Origin: a virus
Taxonomy: Duplodnaviria; Caudoviricetes
DNA length: 64,000 nt
IMG/VR virus record: IMGVR_UViG_2791355306_000002
Span: 2,603 to 66,602 of that record
Reading direction: 5' to 3' (one strand)
The notes under the pieces were generated by a model. It ran no database searches, was not told the DNA's origin, and was given only the letters and a program-made list of their open reading frames with translations. Positions 36,733-44,634 of the stretch are shown piece after piece (positions within the stretch are counted from its first letter, which is position 1; each line of letters begins with the position of its first letter). A program made the translations under genes and the position numbers.

Positions 36733-37527
36733 CTACTCCAATACTTCTAACATTTCAGCTTCTATAAAGTTATCCTTAGCATTAGCTACCTCTTCACTAC
36801 TAACTCCAAGGCTAATTAACTCTTGTTGTTTTCTAGCCATATTCTTTAACATCTCTTCCATTTGTGATACTTCATCATTACCTTTAGATTTAATATTTAC
36901 CTCTACTTGAATTCCTTCAGGTGGTCTAACATGAGTTAAGAAGATATTACAAGCATTAATTCTATCTCTACTAGCTTTAGCAGTCATAGCTTCTTCATAT
37001 AACTTCTCTACTATCTTATACCTATAACCTTGATACATCAGATACAAAGGCATCTCTGATTGAACTAAGATATTTTTAACCATATCAGTCTTACGATACC
37101 TTGAAGCAGCTGAATATAAATTCTTATACTCTTGAGTTTCATATCCTTTATCAGGATCAGCTTCTATAGCTTTTAGAGCTTTTTGCACTACTTCTCTACT
37201 TCTAAATGTTTTAATATATGATTCAGTAACATTTCCTCCACTAGTTTCCATATAACTACAAAATCTAATAGCATTTACATATACTTCTAGATTTACATTT
37301 TTCTTATTAAGTAGTGTATCTTGATACTCTATTAATACATCTTTAAACTTATATCCATCAAATTCTGGATCACTTATAGTAGCATTAATCATATCTACTA
37401 CTTCATCAGTTACTATTAACTCTTTAGACTTTCTAGTACCATTAAAGAACCAATCTTTAATCTCTTCAGCACTATACTCTTTTGTAGGTTTCTTAACCAA
37501 ATTTAACCCTACTTTATACTCAGCCAT
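36733..37527 (-). CDS. N4 gp69-like protein, putative terminase small subunit
   Basis: Immediately upstream of terL; YVNAIRFCSY. Confidence 0.6.
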   Translation of the reverse strand: MAEYKVGLNLVKKPTKEYSAEEIKDWFFNGTRKSKELIVTDEVVDMINATISDPEFDGYKFKDVLIEYQDTLLNKKNVNLEVYVNAIRFCSYMETSGGNVTESYIKTFRSREVVQKALKAIEADPDKGYETQEYKNLYSAASRYRKTDMVKNILVQSEMPLYLMYQGYRYKIVEKLYEEAMTAKASRDRINACNIFLTHVRPPEGIQVEVNIKSKGNDEVSQMEEMLKNMARKQQELISLGVSSEEVANAKDNFIEAEMLEVLE

Positions 37528-37562
37528 ATTGTTATCCTTTATAGTTATTTCAATTTTGTTAC

Positions 37563-37571
37563 ATTATAACA
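37563..37571 (-). promoter_or_regulatory. Extended -10 (TGTTATAAT) for the packaging operon
   Basis: Exact TGnTATAAT. Confidence 0.65.
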
Positions 37572-37680
37572 TAATCTTTATATTGATATTTAATACATTA
37601 TTGAGCTTGTTATTTAACCTAGGGGGTTATTTCTCTCTTTCTTTTTCTTTTTTTTTGTTTTTAGGTAATTGTTTGAGAGT

Positions 37681-37776
37681 GTAGAGACAAAGTTGTATTG
37701 AAAAATTTTATTATTTTTTGTGGAGGGTAATGTAGGACAAATTTGTATTGAAAAATTTTATTTTGGTTTGAGGGTA
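37681..37776. repeat. Imperfect ~50-bp tandem duplication
   Basis: Core TTGTATTGAAAAATTTTATT in both copies, flanked by GACAAA and GAGGGTA. Confidence 0.85.
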
Positions 37777-37825
37777 GTACTCACCCTCTAAATCTTGGAG
37801 TGAGTTGATTCCCCCCTCACTCTGC

Positions 37826-37847
37826 AGAAAAAAGAATTCTTTTTTCT
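37826..37847. repeat. Perfect 22-bp palindrome AGAAAAAAGAATTCTTTTTTCT
   Basis: Read directly. Confidence 0.9.
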
Positions 37848-37959
37848 AACACTCACTATTCGTTCGTGTGTGTTTGAGTAGTGGAGATTATAAAAATAAA
37901 TCCAACATCTCCCTTTACACTCTAGTCTTCATCGAGTGTATTGAATGAAAGGAAAGAAG

Positions 37960-38190
37960 ATGAAGAAAGTAGATATCACTTTGGCTCAAAGAGCCAATAA
38001 GGCAGTAGCTAATGGTTTAGAAACCACTAGCAGTGTTTTAGATGTGATTGCTCTATCTGCTAGAGCAACCAGAGATTTAGCATTTGTTGCAGCTGCAAGA
38101 GCTGCAACCTTGGCAAATGCTGAGAAGGTTGATATAGAAACCTTTAGAAGTATCGATGCCAAAGTTGATGCTGCTTTGGGAAGGATTTAA
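37960..38190 (+). CDS. First early gene, Ala-rich helical protein
   Basis: AAAGGA SD favours the ATG at 37960 over 37945. Confidence 0.7.
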   Translation: MKKVDITLAQRANKAVANGLETTSSVLDVIALSARATRDLAFVAAARAATLANAEKVDIETFRSIDAKVDAALGRI

Positions 38191-38191
38191 A

Positions 38192-38299
38192 ATGAGTATA
38201 AAAGATTTACATACTATAAAAGTAATCCTAAGAAATACCAGTATAAAATCTGTAAAAGATTTTGTAGAATTCTATAAAAGATTTTATCTCAAAGATTAA
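38192..38299 (+). CDS. 35-aa early peptide (MSIKDLHTIKVILRNTSIKSVKDFVEFYKRFYLKD)
   Basis: AAGGA SD, followed by a terminator. Confidence 0.55.
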   Translation: MSIKDLHTIKVILRNTSIKSVKDFVEFYKRFYLKD

Positions 38300-38305
38300 C
38301 AATTT

Positions 38306-38346
38306 CCCTATCACTGCTATCCAGCAGTGGTAGGGATATTTTTTTA
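38306..38346 (+). terminator. Intrinsic terminator
   Basis: CCCTATCACTGCT-ATCC-AGCAGTGGTAGGG then T run. Confidence 0.75.
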
Positions 38347-38366
38347 TTTATATATTTATATATTTT

Positions 38367-38414
38367 TTCTACAACACAACTACACATTTTCTACACACGC
38401 TACACAACTACACA
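38367..38414. repeat. Cluster of CTACAC/CTACAAC short repeats
   Basis: Five copies in under 50 bp, another near 38472. Confidence 0.75.
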
Positions 38415-38591
38415 GTCTGCTCAGATAGTTTTGTTTCTTGTATCAGTTTCTCTCCCTCTCATTGTTTTTTCCTACACCATTTTCTCCTTCATCACTGCAA
38501 GTATCTGTCTTGGCTTTGCTTGGAGTGGTTTCTTTGTTTGAGTTGTGGCAATTTCTAATTGCTAAAAAATTAATTTATTAAGGAGTGAATT

Positions 38592-38909
38592 ATGGCATTC
38601 AATAGAAATACAACACCAAGCAGAAACATCGTTGCTGAGATATTAAAATCAGCTAAATCAGATTTTCTCTATCTATTTGGTGGAGAAAGACTATCTCGTG
38701 ATGAAGTCCTTCAAGTCATTGAAGGCATAAATGCTATGGGCAAATCTATCAAAGCATTTATTAACAGACCAAGAGATCTTGGTCAAGTACCAGGTAATCT
38801 ATTTTACCTTGACTCTGCTGAAGATCTCGAAATAGCAGAGTCATTCGGCAGAGAAAACTCTGCTCATATCATCAATCTGATGATAGTTCATAACCCTAAG
38901 AGGAGCTAA
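38592..38909 (+). CDS. Early protein, possibly N4 gp2-like transcription cofactor
   Basis: AAGGAG SD; function by position only. Confidence 0.4.
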   Translation: MAFNRNTTPSRNIVAEILKSAKSDFLYLFGGERLSRDEVLQVIEGINAMGKSIKAFINRPRDLGQVPGNLFYLDSAEDLEIAESFGRENSAHIINLMIVHNPKRS

Positions 38910-38942
38910 AGCTTCCCCTTAGGGGATTAAAAATTTAACGGC

Positions 38943-39035
38943 AGTTAGTTTAGTAAGCTACCTTAATAAATCTTATCTTTCTTAATTCCTTTCGATTCCT
39001 TTCAATACACTCAAAGGTAGCTTATTAAACTAACT
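38943..39035 (+). ncRNA. 22-bp stem with 49-nt loop antisense to the TIR of gene 37960
   Basis: Arms 38943-38964/39014-39035 with one G-U pair; loop 39001-39012 is the reverse complement of 37934-37945. Confidence 0.6.
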
Positions 39036-39056
39036 AATTTAAACAAGGAGAAAAAC

Positions 39057-39281
39057 ATGAAAAAAGGTATTCTAGTCAAACTAGGAATAATCTTAGACCC
39101 TTTAGTCCATGCAGCTGAGATAATGGCTACAAAAGCTAAAGACCTTAGAGATACAGTAGTAGAAGATACTATTGTAAATCACAGCAAAAAGGACACAAAA
39201 ATAACTGATCAAATGGTCCAAGAATACATCTATCATTCTAAGAGAATGGATGATATGATGGATAAGATTTTCAACAGATAA
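39057..39281 (+). CDS. Early hypothetical protein
   Basis: AAGGAG SD, 74 aa. Confidence 0.7.
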   Translation: MKKGILVKLGIILDPLVHAAEIMATKAKDLRDTVVEDTIVNHSKKDTKITDQMVQEYIYHSKRMDDMMDKIFNR

Positions 39282-39293
39282 TAGGAGAAAAAC

Positions 39294-39347
39294 ATGTCAG
39301 CAAGATATATCTTAGATTTCGATGATGAACTACTAATCATCGAATAG
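39294..39347 (+). CDS. 17-aa acidic micro-peptide (MSARYILDFDDELLIIE)
   Basis: Same AGGAGAAAAACATG start context as gene 39057. Confidence 0.5.
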   Translation: MSARYILDFDDELLIIE

Positions 39348-39350
39348 TTT

Positions 39351-39388
39351 TAATTGAGTAAGCAATAGCTTACTCAATTATTTTTTTA
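39351..39388 (+). terminator. Intrinsic terminator
   Basis: TAATTGAGTAAGC-AATA-GCTTACTCAATTA plus T run. Confidence 0.75.
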
Positions 39389-39415
39389 AATGTCAGAAAG
39401 TTAAAGGAGAATAAA

Positions 39416-39922
39416 ATGTACTATGAATTCGACAATGGAAATAAATATAGTAAAAATAAATACAGCCTTGAAGAGGCAGAGCAACTTAATGCTACTCTAA
39501 ACCATTGTTCTAACTGTATAGATTGCAGTTACTGTACAGACTGTGGTTCTTGTGAGAACTGTCATACTTGTATAAACTGTTGTAGCTGTATAGATAGTAC
39601 AAACTTAGAAAATTGTATAAATTGTGGAGATTGTGAGTATCTCTACCGATCAAGTAATTGTTATAACTGTACAAATAGTCAGAATTTAGAACGATGCAGG
39701 AATTGTAATGAATGTAATGATTGTAGTGATTGTATAAATTGCTGTCTCACAAATAACTCTAAAGGTTGTAAAAGTTGTCTATACTCTGAAAATCTTAGAA
39801 ACTGTAGAGATTGTATAGATTGTCAAAATTGTACCAATTGTATAGATTGTCAAAAATGTAAATCTGTTAGCAATAGAGCTATGTACATAAGAAATATTAG
39901 CATGATGACTGCTTATAGTTAG
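39416..39922 (+). CDS. (Cxx)n cysteine-repeat protein, copy 1
   Basis: Cys at every third position over most of the protein. Confidence 0.85.
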   Translation: MYYEFDNGNKYSKNKYSLEEAEQLNATLNHCSNCIDCSYCTDCGSCENCHTCINCCSCIDSTNLENCINCGDCEYLYRSSNCYNCTNSQNLERCRNCNECNDCSDCINCCLTNNSKGCKSCLYSENLRNCRDCIDCQNCTNCIDCQKCKSVSNRAMYIRNISMMTAYS

Positions 39923-39972
39923 CAGTCATCTGCTACTTATTTTAAAATATCAGAAAGTTTAAAAGGAAAAAC

Positions 39973-41856
39973 ATGGAAAAATATAGTAGAAGATCAGCAA
40001 AAGCTAAAATTAAAGCAATATGTGAATCACAGGATAAAAGTATCGAAGTTCTATCTAATAAAATATTAGAGTGGAAAGAAGAGTATTTAAAAGGTAACAT
40101 TGGTAAGCCTTACAAAACAAAAACTGATGTAGTAAATATGGTAACTGAAGATATAGCTGATGAGTTAGCCATATCTATACTATTTACTACAATCCTCTTA
40201 GGCAAGACTACATTTCAAAGCTACATAGGTCATGTAGCTTCTCAAATAAATTTAGAGATAGAAAGTTTTAGAAAAGCTCAACTTGCTGCTTGGGTATTAG
40301 CTTACTGTGATGGTGGAGCTTATAATATCATAGCTCCAGCAATTGGTTCTATGATGAATTATAGTGTAGAACCAAAGATATCTTTATCAATAGAAGATTC
40401 ACAAGAGTTAGCAAGATGTTTCTTCTTACCTCCTAGCAAGGATAAGTTAAATGATTGGACTAATCCATACAATGGTGGATATAGCTTTGAGAGAAGCTAT
40501 GCTATACTAGGTGATAGCTTTAACAAGCATGATTATCCAATAGATTTAAATACTCTAAATATCTTACAATCAGTTAAATATAAATTAACCAATAATGTTG
40601 ATACTCCTCAAAAACTTGATGAAGAAGCAAGTGATGATAGAGTAGTTCAATTTGCTTTAGCTGAGATACAGACTAGAAAGGTTCTAAAAGAGTATAGAGA
40701 TGATGAGTTCTCTTTTATGTGGAAATTCGATAAAAGAGGTAGAGTATATAGCTGTGGATATGATATAAATGTCCAAGGTGATAGTTATAGAAAAGCTTCT
40801 TTAGAATTTGCTAAAGAAGAGATAGTAAATGAGTCTGGTATGAGATGGTTAAAAATAGATATAGCCAATCATTATGGCTTAGATAAAGAGTTATGGGAAG
40901 ATAGAGTTAAGTTTGTAGATGAGAATGATTCTATCTTAGAAGCTTTAGCTGATAAGGCTGATGAACCACTACTATATATCCAAGCTGTTGAGGCTTACAG
41001 AAAAGCTCAAAGAGGATTACCAACTGGATATATAGTTAGACTCGATGCTACAGCCTCTGGTCCTCAAATAATGAATACTCTATTTAGAGATATTGAAGGT
41101 ATGAAATATCTAAATGTCCTTGGAGATGATACAAGATATGATTTATATACCTTAGTAGCAAAGATGATGTATGAAAATACCAAAGATTCTCAGATTTGGA
41201 GAGATTTAAATAATGACTTTGCTAAAGTAAGAAAAATCGTCAAAAAGCCAATTATGACAAGCTTTTATAACTCAACTTCTAAACCAAAAGAGATATTTGG
41301 TGAGAATACCATAGAGTTACAAGAGTTCTATAAAGCTTTAAAGAGATATTGTGAAGGAGCTTTAGCAGTACAAGATACTATTAATGCTTGTTGGAGTAAC
41401 TCTAAAGATGTAAATATCTGGACTTTACCAGATGGACATACAGCTTATTGTCCAGTAAGCAAAGTATTAGAGAGCAAAATAGAGATACCTGAAAAAGGTA
41501 TGAAGATTACTTATACTCATACAGTTCAAAAAGCTAACTTTGCTGAAAGTAGATCATTATGCCCAAATTTGGTACATAGTTTAGATGGTTATATTTGTAG
41601 AGAGATAGTTAAAAGATTACACTCTAAAGGTATAGAGGTATCTCCAATCCATGATAGTTTTGGAGTACATCCAAATAACTGTGATGAGCTTAGAAAAGTA
41701 TATAGAGAATTATTAGCTGAGATTTATGAAGAAGATACTCTGACAAATCTGTTAAAAGAGATTACAGGTAGTGATATCAATGTAGATATCCCAGCTGCTA
41801 ATGAAGACATAGCTCAAGCCATTAGAGATAATGTAAATGGCTATTACATCTGTTAA
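39973..41856 (+). CDS. T7-family single-subunit RNA polymerase (N4 RNAPII-like, one chain)
   Basis: DKRGRVY, LDATASGPQ, RKIVKKPIMTSFY, PNLVHSLD, IHDSF. Confidence 0.93.
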   Translation: MEKYSRRSAKAKIKAICESQDKSIEVLSNKILEWKEEYLKGNIGKPYKTKTDVVNMVTEDIADELAISILFTTILLGKTTFQSYIGHVASQINLEIESFRKAQLAAWVLAYCDGGAYNIIAPAIGSMMNYSVEPKISLSIEDSQELARCFFLPPSKDKLNDWTNPYNGGYSFERSYAILGDSFNKHDYPIDLNTLNILQSVKYKLTNNVDTPQKLDEEASDDRVVQFALAEIQTRKVLKEYRDDEFSFMWKFDKRGRVYSCGYDINVQGDSYRKASLEFAKEEIVNESGMRWLKIDIANHYGLDKELWEDRVKFVDENDSILEALADKADEPLLYIQAVEAYRKAQRGLPTGYIVRLDATASGPQIMNTLFRDIEGMKYLNVLGDDTRYDLYTLVAKMMYENTKDSQIWRDLNNDFAKVRKIVKKPIMTSFYNSTSKPKEIFGENTIELQEFYKALKRYCEGALAVQDTINACWSNSKDVNIWTLPDGHTAYCPVSKVLESKIEIPEKGMKITYTHTVQKANFAESRSLCPNLVHSLDGYICREIVKRLHSKGIEVSPIHDSFGVHPNNCDELRKVYRELLAEIYEEDTLTNLLKEITGSDINVDIPAANEDIAQAIRDNVNGYYIC

Positions 41857-41897: not shown

Positions 41898-42000
41898 ATT
41901 TATTTTTTTCTGATGATGGAGAGTTTGTTTCTGATTTGGGGGGCATTCGCCCCCTTTTGTGATTGTTTTTAATTATAATTTAATAAAAAGCTAAGTTATA

Positions 42001-42330
42001 TGTTATAATACTTTTGCTATAGGTAATTATGCATTACTCGGTCTCTTTATTATATTATATTATATTAATAATACCTATAGCTTTTAAGTTAGGAGATTTT
42101 TTTTCTTTTACATGTTTTTCCTTAAATCTCCTAACTTAAGGGATATATTTATATTTGTTAGCTTTTAACAAATATGCCCTTACGCCTTCATAACTTGTCA
42201 TAAACTCCTATTGCATATTTTATTCCAATAATCTTTACCTAAGGAAGGCTAGGTAAGGATTATCTTTTTACTTGTGATTTTACTCGTTATTTAAACTAAG
42301 CAGCCATTTACTGCTTATATTTTAATACTA
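42001..42330 (+). ncRNA. Sigma70-driven multi-hairpin RNA/leader, one loop antisense to the RNAP TIR
   Basis: TGTTATAAT 42001-42009; stems at 42016-42081, 42084-42139, ~42151-42175, ~42228-42263, ~42297-42317. Confidence 0.55.
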
Positions 42331-42630: not shown

Positions 42631-43062
42631 ATGGAAGATGATTACTGGGAATTTGGAACGAACAAATGGAGTAAAGAACATTTCTCTTACAAAGAAGCTT
42701 TAAAACATTCAAAAACATTAGAAAATTGTAAGTACTGTATCAATTGTTACAACTGCAAAGATTGTATAGCTTGTGAATCATGTGATGATTGTACTCAATG
42801 TAGTTGTTGTGATTGGTGTGATAAATGTACAAATTGCTATGCATGTAACTGGTGTGAATCATGTATAAATTGTGCTTACTGTGGCACTTGCTATGAGTGT
42901 AAAAAGTGTTTTGGCTGTGTAGATTGCTCACATTGTGATACATGTAAAGATTGTCAAGATGTAGATGACTATAAAAATCTAGAAGCTGTAGATGGAGATA
43001 TGACTCTCCTCATTGAGTATTTTGGATCTGAAATAGAAAAAGAGATAACTCAATTCGATTAA
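42631..43062 (+). CDS. (Cxx)n cysteine-repeat protein, copy 2
   Basis: NKWSK..SYKEALKHSKTLENC then Cxx repeats. Confidence 0.85.
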   Translation: MEDDYWEFGTNKWSKEHFSYKEALKHSKTLENCKYCINCYNCKDCIACESCDDCTQCSCCDWCDKCTNCYACNWCESCINCAYCGTCYECKKCFGCVDCSHCDTCKDCQDVDDYKNLEAVDGDMTLLIEYFGSEIEKEITQFD

Positions 43063-43695: not shown

Positions 43696-44634
43696 ATGAA
43701 ATCTTTCTTTTATATACCTAGATCCAAATACTATTTCATAGATGGTAACTATTTTTCTAAAAAGAAACATACATACAAACAAGCTGTTAAAGCTTCTAAG
43801 ACCTTGATAAATTGTACAGGGTGTATTGATTGCTATAAATGTACTGACTGTTCATGGTGTGAGAAGTGTAGAGAATGTACATATTGTTATATGTTATTTA
43901 ACTGTGAGAAATGTGTTAGTTGTTCATTTTGTCAAGAGTGTAGTAAATGTATAGAACTAAACTTCTCATATAACTGTAATAACTGTTTTTTCTGTAATCA
44001 TATAGAAATATGTAATGAGTGTATGTATCTAAGTTATAAACATAATCATGGCTTTAATAATTTAAATAAGGAGTGTTCGATGGAACAAATATTTTTAAAT
44101 TTAAAAGAGTGGAGAAGAGAGAGAAATATATCTTCTCAAATGCAAAGGGATAACTTTATAACTCTAATTCAAGAAGAGTTAAGAGAGTATTATGAAGCTA
44201 AAAATGTTGAAGAACAGATAGATGCTCTATCTGATATGGCAGTAGTTGCTATAAATTGTAGCAAATCATCTGCTCCAATATTTTTCCCAGGAGGTTACAA
44301 AGATATTGTAACTAACGATAAAGTATCATTTGGTGTAGCCATAGATAAGATAAAAGAGTTAGACTTTGATGATTCTGAAATAATGAAATTTTTAATCCTA
44401 ATAGCTAACAAGATAGAAGAGCTAGGTTATGATTTTATTCTATGCCTTCACGAGACAGTAAAAGAAATCTCATCAAGAACAGGACATTGGGATAAAGAAA
44501 AAGGTAAGTGGATTAAAAACACTTCAGAAGAAGCTAAAAAGATGTGGTACAAAGCAAACTACAAAAAATGTAGGATAATCGAAAAAGGCTGGGATGAATA
44601 TACTACAATAACTCGTTATAAAGGAGAAATATGA
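43696..44634 (+). CDS. Cysteine-repeat domain (copy 4) in frame with a MazG-like NTP pyrophosphohydrolase domain
   Basis: QEELREY..EQIDALSDMAVV, ETVKEISSRTG; internal AAGGAG plus ATG at 44080. Confidence 0.7.
   Translation: MKSFFYIPRSKYYFIDGNYFSKKKHTYKQAVKASKTLINCTGCIDCYKCTDCSWCEKCRECTYCYMLFNCEKCVSCSFCQECSKCIELNFSYNCNNCFFCNHIEICNECMYLSYKHNHGFNNLNKECSMEQIFLNLKEWRRERNISSQMQRDNFITLIQEELREYYEAKNVEEQIDALSDMAVVAINCSKSSAPIFFPGGYKDIVTNDKVSFGVAIDKIKELDFDDSEIMKFLILIANKIEELGYDFILCLHETVKEISSRTGHWDKEKGKWIKNTSEEAKKMWYKANYKKCRIIEKGWDEYTTITRYKGEI

Follow-up and report, generated by a model that had tools for sequence, protein, structure and literature searches.

Between two small genes in the early region of an N4-like phage lies a long inverted repeat whose arms would clamp an open, pyrimidine-rich loop, and the question raised by this locus is what such a hairpin is for: does it act on the transcript in which it lies, does its loop silence another gene in trans, is it read as DNA, or is it a relic without function? 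The window analysed here is a stretch of 64,000 nt, bases 2603-66602 of a 66.6-kb IMG/VR virus record, and the hairpin consists of three parts:

38943-38964, + strand: left stem arm AGTTAGTTTAGTAAGCTACCTT, 22 nt
38965-39013, + strand: loop, 49 nt, open, 69% pyrimidine, 1 G
39014-39035, + strand: right stem arm AAGGTAGCTTATTAAACTAACT, 22 nt

The 22 pairs of the stem are 21 Watson-Crick pairs and the pair G38953.T39025. The + strand hairpin has an MFE of –35.8 kcal/mol (z –4.0), equalled by 0/200 shuffles, with the loop entirely unpaired in both the MFE and the centroid structures; the stem-loop is beyond chance. A preliminary description of this DNA had reported a 22-bp stem with one G.U pair holding a 49-nt loop, and we confirm the coordinates and the pairing as well as the loop, which is predicted to be fully open. 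It had also read the G-U pair as favouring the plus strand, and the pair is indeed G.U in + strand RNA and C.A in the – strand; yet – strand RNA folds well too (z –3.2), so the strand is assigned only by the G.U pair and by the direction in which the flanking genes run. Between 37900 and 64000, 112 of the 26,053 49-nt windows on the + strand contain at most one G. G-poor non-coding stretches recur on this strand (9 clusters in 26 kb). At gathering thresholds Rfam gave 0 matches to the whole window, and below threshold it gave only generic hairpin noise, with E values of up to 5 (MIR7993, 21 bits vs 100).

Judged by its genes, the window belongs to a very divergent, uncultured N4-like phage and the hairpin to its early module, because it encodes a virion RNA polymerase homologue of N4 type (3475 aa; phrog_2206, E 3.9e-81), an RNAPII and a large terminase (TerL), and because of its gene layout, with late genes on the – strand up to 37527 and early and middle genes on the + strand from 37960. 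The window has a G+C content of ∼30%. Its RNAPII matches phrog_2051, phrog_414 and phrog_2166 (both N4-type subunits) and shares ∼30% identity with RNAP1 + RNAP2 pairs from N4-like phages of Vibrio, Klebsiella, Salmonella and Escherichia:

39973-41856: fused N4-type RNAPII, 627 aa, single ORF

RNAP1 and RNAP2 of known N4-like phages are two adjacent genes, in contrast to the fused ORF of the window. Three paralogous genes (39416-39922, 42631-43062 and 43696-44634) match phrog_15341, a family of unknown function.

One relative with DNA, the 16.6-kb IMG/VR contig L004, was available for comparison. Its hairpin occupies the same site between the same two genes, whose proteins (gene 3 upstream and gene 4 downstream) share 83% and 89% amino-acid identity with those of the window, respectively. 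It adopts the same fold (z –3.8) around a loop of 44 nt with 0 G and keeps the G.U pair. The arms are identical at 43/44 bases (left 21/22, right 22/22), and the sole difference falls on the loop-closing base, so that this one pair is lost. By comparison, third codon positions of genes 1, 3 and 4 are identical at 164/255 (64%), and the two loops at 33/42 aligned bases plus 7 gap columns. Common to both loops are the blocks CTTTCTTAA, CCTTTC and CAATACAC, while a 10-nt tandem duplication in the window loop, TTCCTTTCGA / TTCCTTTCAA, is not found in the relative. The conservation of arms, loop and site indicates that the element is real, functional and constrained mainly in its helix, and as the loops differ a recent transfer of the whole element is excluded. 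The element is genuine, is conserved and has not been described before, and its stem, as judged from the sequence comparison, is under strong selection. Since the arms are invariant there is no covariation, and pairing as such is not proven to be the selected feature. The near-perfect conservation of both arms suggests instead that their sequence is read and not their shape alone, which is not something RNase III would require.

Public sequencing runs extend the comparison. Contigs of relatives roughly 87–93% identical cover the hairpin in 4/4 runs compared, and among the public-run matches listed the sole difference within it is T>C at 38986, a position that is T in the window, A in the relative and C in the contigs of 4/4 runs. 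One contig, from run X4, extends over 37688-39634. These public-run relatives (37400-40000; X1, X4, X8, X9) come from animal gut and faeces metagenomes and from a small, isolate-size run of ‘organism A’. When IMG/VR was scanned for relatives of the element, with proteins and with DNA, the same contig, L004, came back every time. The phage collection gave no DNA match (megablast, blastn), and whatever matched in the metagenome and genome collections was due to chance. The first 9 kb of coliphage N4 contain no comparable inverted repeat, so the hairpin is not a family-wide feature.

Could the inverted repeat nevertheless be functionless, the remnant of a terminator whose loop has taken up an insertion, or a miniature inverted-repeat element that inserted here? 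Its arms resemble those of the nearby terminator (at 39351-39380), and AATTTAA stands on both sides of the hairpin in the window. Against this, the arms are 43/44 identical where neutral identity is ∼64%, they have no second copy in the 66.6-kb genome, and the AATTTAA flanking repeat is absent in the relative. A scan of IMG/VR with the arm motif gave 4 matches, namely the relative and 3 chance ones in coding DNA that lack an inverted repeat. We regard a relic as hardly credible, and the mobile-element version was rejected outright, the element being single-copy and the same site being occupied in the relative without the flanking repeat.

The genes on both sides of the hairpin are co-oriented (+), and terminators lie at 38305 and 39351:

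38305-38345, + strand: terminator-like hairpin with T run, after genes 1 and 2, conserved in the relative
38548-38562, + strand: candidate virion-RNAP-type promoter GCAATT-TCT-AATTGC, 6-bp stem, 3-nt loop
38592-38909, + strand: gene 3, 105 aa, immediately before the hairpin
39057-39281, + strand: gene 4, 74 aa, SD AAGGAG at 39046-39051
39294-39347: 17-codon ORF, conserved in the relative; its SD-spacer-ATG string, AGGAGAAAAACATG, is identical to that of gene 4
39351-39390, + strand: terminator-like hairpin with T run, ending the unit of gene 3, hairpin, gene 4 and 17-aa ORF

The terminator at 38305-38345, as predicted, would separate the gene-1 transcript from the hairpin transcript. The candidate promoter has a T-rich block upstream and falls within a 42-nt run of identity with the relative; block and promoter hairpin together occupy 38535-38566 (2945-2976 in L004), ∼30 nt upstream of gene 3. 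By analogy it resembles the published early promoters of N4 and LUZ7. The motif TGTTTGAGnnGTGG precedes gene 1 as well (37871-37884). Pfam and PHROGs offer no family for genes 1, 2, 3 or 4; the 17-codon ORF is probably a real micro-protein because it is conserved in the relative. Downstream of the hairpin, the SD of gene 4 starts 10 nt after the stem.

The hairpin itself does not have the marks of an intrinsic terminator. The terminator scan listed 15 terminator-like sites but not this one, and with AAUUUAAAC following its stem it lacks the combination of G+C-rich stem, small loop and U run of an intrinsic terminator, although the arms of the terminator at 39351-39390 resemble its own (T[T/G]AGTAAGC). 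Just upstream of the hairpin no good sigma-70-type promoter was found, and no convincing separate small-RNA promoter or terminator flanks it. A short hairpin at 38914-38926, TCCCC-TTA-GGGGA, was considered as a promoter and rejected because it is not conserved in the relative.

Several further features of the module stood out in passing. Just after the first terminator, 38336-38398 is a 63-nt G-free, C/A-rich run with CTACAC repeats that is conserved in the relative. The sequence TCAGAAAGTT occurs at 39393-39402 and at 39950-39959, each time after a hairpin and T-rich run and before an SD, that of the 39416 gene and that of RNAPII; the relative has a related form of it before its own RNAPII, and it may be a promoter or leader motif. 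The first phrog_15341 gene (39416-39922) is not present in the relative, where the RNAPII gene directly follows the terminator, and the RNAPII ORF there ends at 538 aa with further ORFs after it and may be interrupted. The junction of the late (–) and early (+) modules, 37528-37959, contains two 38-nt direct repeats (37686-37723 and 37736-37773) and a perfect 22-bp palindrome (37826-37847), all kept in the relative. The physical genome ends and the first promoters may lie inside this junction, and compared with N4 the record probably shows a circular permutation.

The reading we favour, at a probability of roughly 45% and thus somewhat short of even odds, is that the hairpin is a cis-acting structured RNA signal inside an early polycistronic mRNA. 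The unit would run from the candidate promoter at 38548-38562 through gene 3, the hairpin, gene 4 and the 17-aa ORF to the terminator at 39351-39390. In its transcript a 22-bp A/U-rich helix would hold out an unstructured C/U-rich loop, G-free in the relative (44 nt) and nearly G-free in the window (49 nt), upstream of the gene 4 ribosome-binding site. With selection acting mainly on the helix, the element would most likely act on its own transcript. It might be a processing or stability signal for an RNase III-type nuclease that uncouples gene 3 from gene 4. RNase III needs a stem of about two helical turns, and the continuous double-stranded stem, with 22 bp in the window and 21 in its relative, has the ∼20 bp or more of an RNase III-type site. 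Alternatively, the hairpin might be a platform that binds a protein or the ribosome. We infer transcription of the + strand through the hairpin, its cleavage or binding, and the agent responsible. A second + strand hairpin of similar design supports the cis-acting reading:

42081-42142, + strand: second hairpin, 19-bp stem with two G.U pairs, 24-nt pyrimidine-rich loop (42100-42123)

This hairpin lies within a strongly structured non-coding stretch, 42010-42275 (z –6.3), which is bounded by a sigma-70-like promoter with an extended –10 (41980-42009) and by terminator-like hairpins (42228-42263 and 42297-42317); the region 41980-42275 is a candidate non-coding RNA or long leader. Both long hairpins share AGTTAG...CTAACT, which we dismiss as probably a coincidence since the stem registers differ.

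The invariance of the arms hints that their sequence is being read, and for this reason a reading at the level of DNA stays alive. In such a model the arms would be inverted binding sites for a protein, or a hairpin or cruciform would help the phage's own RNA polymerases to initiate in the A/T-rich stretch that precedes gene 4. Invariant arms around a drifting, length-variable spacer are the pattern of protein-binding half-sites, and folded as single-stranded DNA the hairpin has a z of –5.7. The sequence TGTATTGAA occurs 6 times in the window where 1.15 are expected, with 4/6 copies inside 1.4 kb, in two upstream repeats, the gene-1 leader and, on the other strand, the loop. On the other side, neither a conserved G.T mismatch nor the lack of G in the loop makes obvious sense in duplex DNA, cruciform extrusion is unlikely with a 49-nt spacer, and the arms are single-copy in the genome. 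What is described of related phages cuts both ways. The published accounts of N4 and LUZ7 report DNA hairpin promoters in N4-like phages and LUZ7 middle promoters with hairpins (PMC4496689, PMC9163698), and AATTTAAAC follows the stem where the account of N4 describes its RNAPII promoters as A/T-rich (PMC4496689). However, the virion-RNAP promoters in these accounts are far smaller hairpins, with 4 to 7 bp in the stem and 3 nt in the loop against 22 bp and 49 nt here. We consider a DNA-level role unlikely, though not negligible.

The preliminary description had proposed a different task for the hairpin, that of a trans-acting, possibly RNase III-released RNA that shuts off gene 1. In this model the clamped loop would block translation of gene 1 by pairing with its leader 12-mer, its SD and its initial codons. 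The sites concerned are:

37934-37969, + strand: proposed target, comprising the leader 12-mer (37934-37945), the SD, ATG 37960 and GAAGAAAG
37947-37954, + strand: gene-1 SD GAAAGGAA
37960-38190, + strand: gene 1, 76 aa, opens the + strand early module, matches no family
38977-38983, + strand: loop block CTTTCTT, complements 37963-37969, anti-SD-like
38986-38993 and 38996-39003, + strand: loop block TTCCTTTC, two copies, complements the SD GAAAGGAA, anti-SD-like
39001-39012, + strand: loop block TTCAATACACTC, exact complement of 37934-37945

The antisense RNA could be a released fragment or a part of the operon-2 mRNA, or loop and target could sit on one molecule if the 38305 terminator is read through. 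The start of gene 1 was set at ATG 37960 by agreement with the relative's start, there being an in-frame upstream ATG at 37945, and GAAGAAAG falls in the first codons. In the MFE fold of the leader, UCUUCAUC/GAUGAAGA (37926-37933 / 37959-37966) closes a 25-nt loop, 37934-37958, that holds the 12-mer and the SD, with the AUG within the closing stem; as modelled, this would give the two RNAs a kissing-loop geometry. Within the first codons of gene 1, 37981-37997 forms a 7-bp stem with an AAA loop (TTGGCTC-AAA-GAGCCAA), which the relative (L004 ∼2150-2166) keeps through two mutually compensating synonymous changes (TTAGCTC / GAGCTAA).

All coordinates of the three complementary blocks and their antiparallel order hold, and over two 36-nt stretches loop and gene-1 start are 72% complementary without a gap. 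We calculated duplex energies with ViennaRNA duplexfold and compared them with dinucleotide-preserving shuffles of the loop. Loop and gene-1 start region pair at –33.9 kcal/mol, and on this target the value was reached by 1/2000 loop shuffles and by 0/2000 target shuffles. Among 12,790 windows on both strands the gene-1 start is the best non-self site, the next reaching –28.3, and when shuffled loops were offered the 65 predicted start regions 2/400 equalled –33.9. However, 5/55 shuffled loops reached –33.9 or better somewhere in the whole window (mean best –31.3). The best site of a shuffled loop fell on a start region in 2/27 cases, and on a start region at that energy in 1/27. The shuffle control proposed at the outset thus favours the pairing on the gene-1 target and on start regions and does not favour it across the window, where after correction for the number of sites searched the energy is not significant: the pairing is noteworthy if a start-region target is assumed beforehand and otherwise unremarkable, a suggestive result, and the loop-leader complementarity is only marginally, at the borderline, beyond chance.

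The 12-mer had been put forward as an argument against generic anti-SD matching as it lies outside the SD. It does lie outside (37934-37945, with the SD at 37947-37954), but a match of this length is not unusual: 231/300 shuffled loops have an exact complement of at least 12 nt somewhere in the window, and 39/400 have one in the 65 start regions. The same 2 kb also hold an unrelated 11/11 complement, which joins the stem-loop junction (38961-38971) to the gene 3 start region (38573-38583); it is absent from the relative and was set aside as chance.

If the loop has been selected to pair with the gene-1 start, then the relative should preserve this pairing. There the cognate pairing reaches –14.0, a value attained by 392/2000 shuffles, and both non-cognate combinations of loop and leader are stronger (–25.3 and –21.2). 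When 1854 windows across 9.3 kb of the relative are ranked, the cognate site comes ∼106th. Placed in the register of the shared core, the 12 pairs are kept in 6 cases and broken in 6, with 0 compensatory changes. Of loop block TTCAATACACTC the core CAATACAC alone is common to the relative's loop, and the relative's gene-1 leader, 51 nt shorter, is without the 5′ half of the 12-mer and has no counterpart of the leader hairpin. Covariation of loop and target, the other test proposed at the outset, therefore fails in the one relative compared. Nor does any target conserved in both phages stand out in the 9.3 kb of the relative, the best joint sites being purine-rich TerL coding sequence with ordinary energies. 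A detail in favour of the interaction concerns the four loop bases on either side of the core: none is shared with the relative, and all four match the window phage's own leader. In two public-run relatives the alignment breaks off at 37923, which shows that the lineage is variable in the gene-1 leader and 5′ end; the idea that the insert in the gene-1 leader is a direct copy of the loop was discarded, as its local alignment is no better than shuffles (481/2000).

The sequence of the relative thus argues against a conserved loop-leader interaction. Of the trans-acting RNA proposed for gene 1, the conserved sense-strand hairpin, a stem as long as that of a double-strand-RNase substrate, the best non-self site and the leader-loop geometry survive, while the relative and the genome-wide test speak against it, as does the want of a small-RNA promoter or terminator of its own at the hairpin. 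We consider this reading improbable, and the present evidence does not justify calling the hairpin a gene 1 regulator.

The second hairpin lends the antisense reading a little support. Its loop contains an exact 13/13 complement of AAGGAAAAACATG in the RNAPII start region (39963-39975), and a match as long to any of the 65 start regions was found for 12/400 shuffles. By energy this pairing is not significant (155/600), and the hairpin was noticed post hoc. One could extend the idea to the N4-like lineage as a whole, which would then use stem-clamped antisense loops as a translational switch-off of early and middle genes. Long perfect helices would present G-poor loops for pairing with start regions, that of gene 1 for hairpin 1 and that of the RNAPII gene for hairpin 2 (42081-42142), and a fast rewiring of targets between relatives would explain conserved stems with drifting loops. 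We hold this to be decidedly improbable. If true, it would mean RNA-based temporal shut-off, possibly coupled to double-strand cleavage, in a strictly virulent phage type. The known control in N4-like phages is a relay of three RNA polymerases, and to our knowledge early shut-off in these phages is poorly understood. A conserved, sequence-constrained helix in the early operon is in any case a handle on post-transcriptional control in a divergent N4-like branch; should the cis-acting reading hold, it would be an ordinary but previously undescribed element of mRNA processing or stability.

Among known systems, the closest to the cis-acting reading are the RNase III processing hairpins that separate the cistrons of the phage T7 early mRNA. 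By analogy, both would have a long double-stranded stem between cistrons of a polycistronic early phage transcript that a T7-like RNA polymerase makes. T7 RNase III sites combine an internal loop with a small apical loop, in contrast to the perfect helix of the window and its loop of 44–49 nt, which is G-free or nearly so and partly conserved; cleavage here is putative.

For the antisense reading the comparison is with the c4 RNA of phages P1 and P7, which presents its complementary sites in loops. The source consulted describes c4 as an antisense RNA of the immI operon (PMC8198154, citing Citron and Schuster 1990). According to that account, it is likewise a phage RNA encoded apart from its target in the same phage that would pair with a ribosome-binding region, but it belongs to a temperate immunity system, has its own promoter and finds its target downstream in the same operon (PMC8198154). 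The window phage, by contrast, is N4-like, its proposed target belongs to a different transcription unit 1 kb upstream, and the relative does not preserve the pairing. In icaR of Staphylococcus aureus, as summarised in PMC3868564, a C/U-rich anti-SD in the 3′-UTR pairs with the SD region in the 5′-UTR, blocks initiation and makes a substrate for RNase III. This would be the model for the hairpin if the terminator at 38305 were read through; however, icaR as described there is one mRNA of one gene with pairing shown experimentally, whereas the window has two operons and a predicted pairing.

Searches of article texts for small or antisense RNAs of Schitoviridae or of early genes in lytic phages turned up no such element. 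Nearest in phage type are the putative late small RNAs of LUZ7 between orf69 and orf70, one of them thought to be processed (PMC9163698). They too are non-coding RNA candidates in an N4-type phage, but from another genome region and with late timing, and the account gives no known target for them (PMC9163698). Finally, the early promoters of the N4 virion-RNAP (PMC4496689) and the early and middle hairpin promoters of LUZ7 (PMC9163698) are, like our element, inverted repeats of an N4-like early region that can form hairpins. As these sources describe them, they have stems of 4–7 bp, 3-nt loops and defined purines, in contrast to the 22-bp stem and 49-nt loop at 38943-39035, and the better candidate for a promoter of this kind in the window is 38548-38562.
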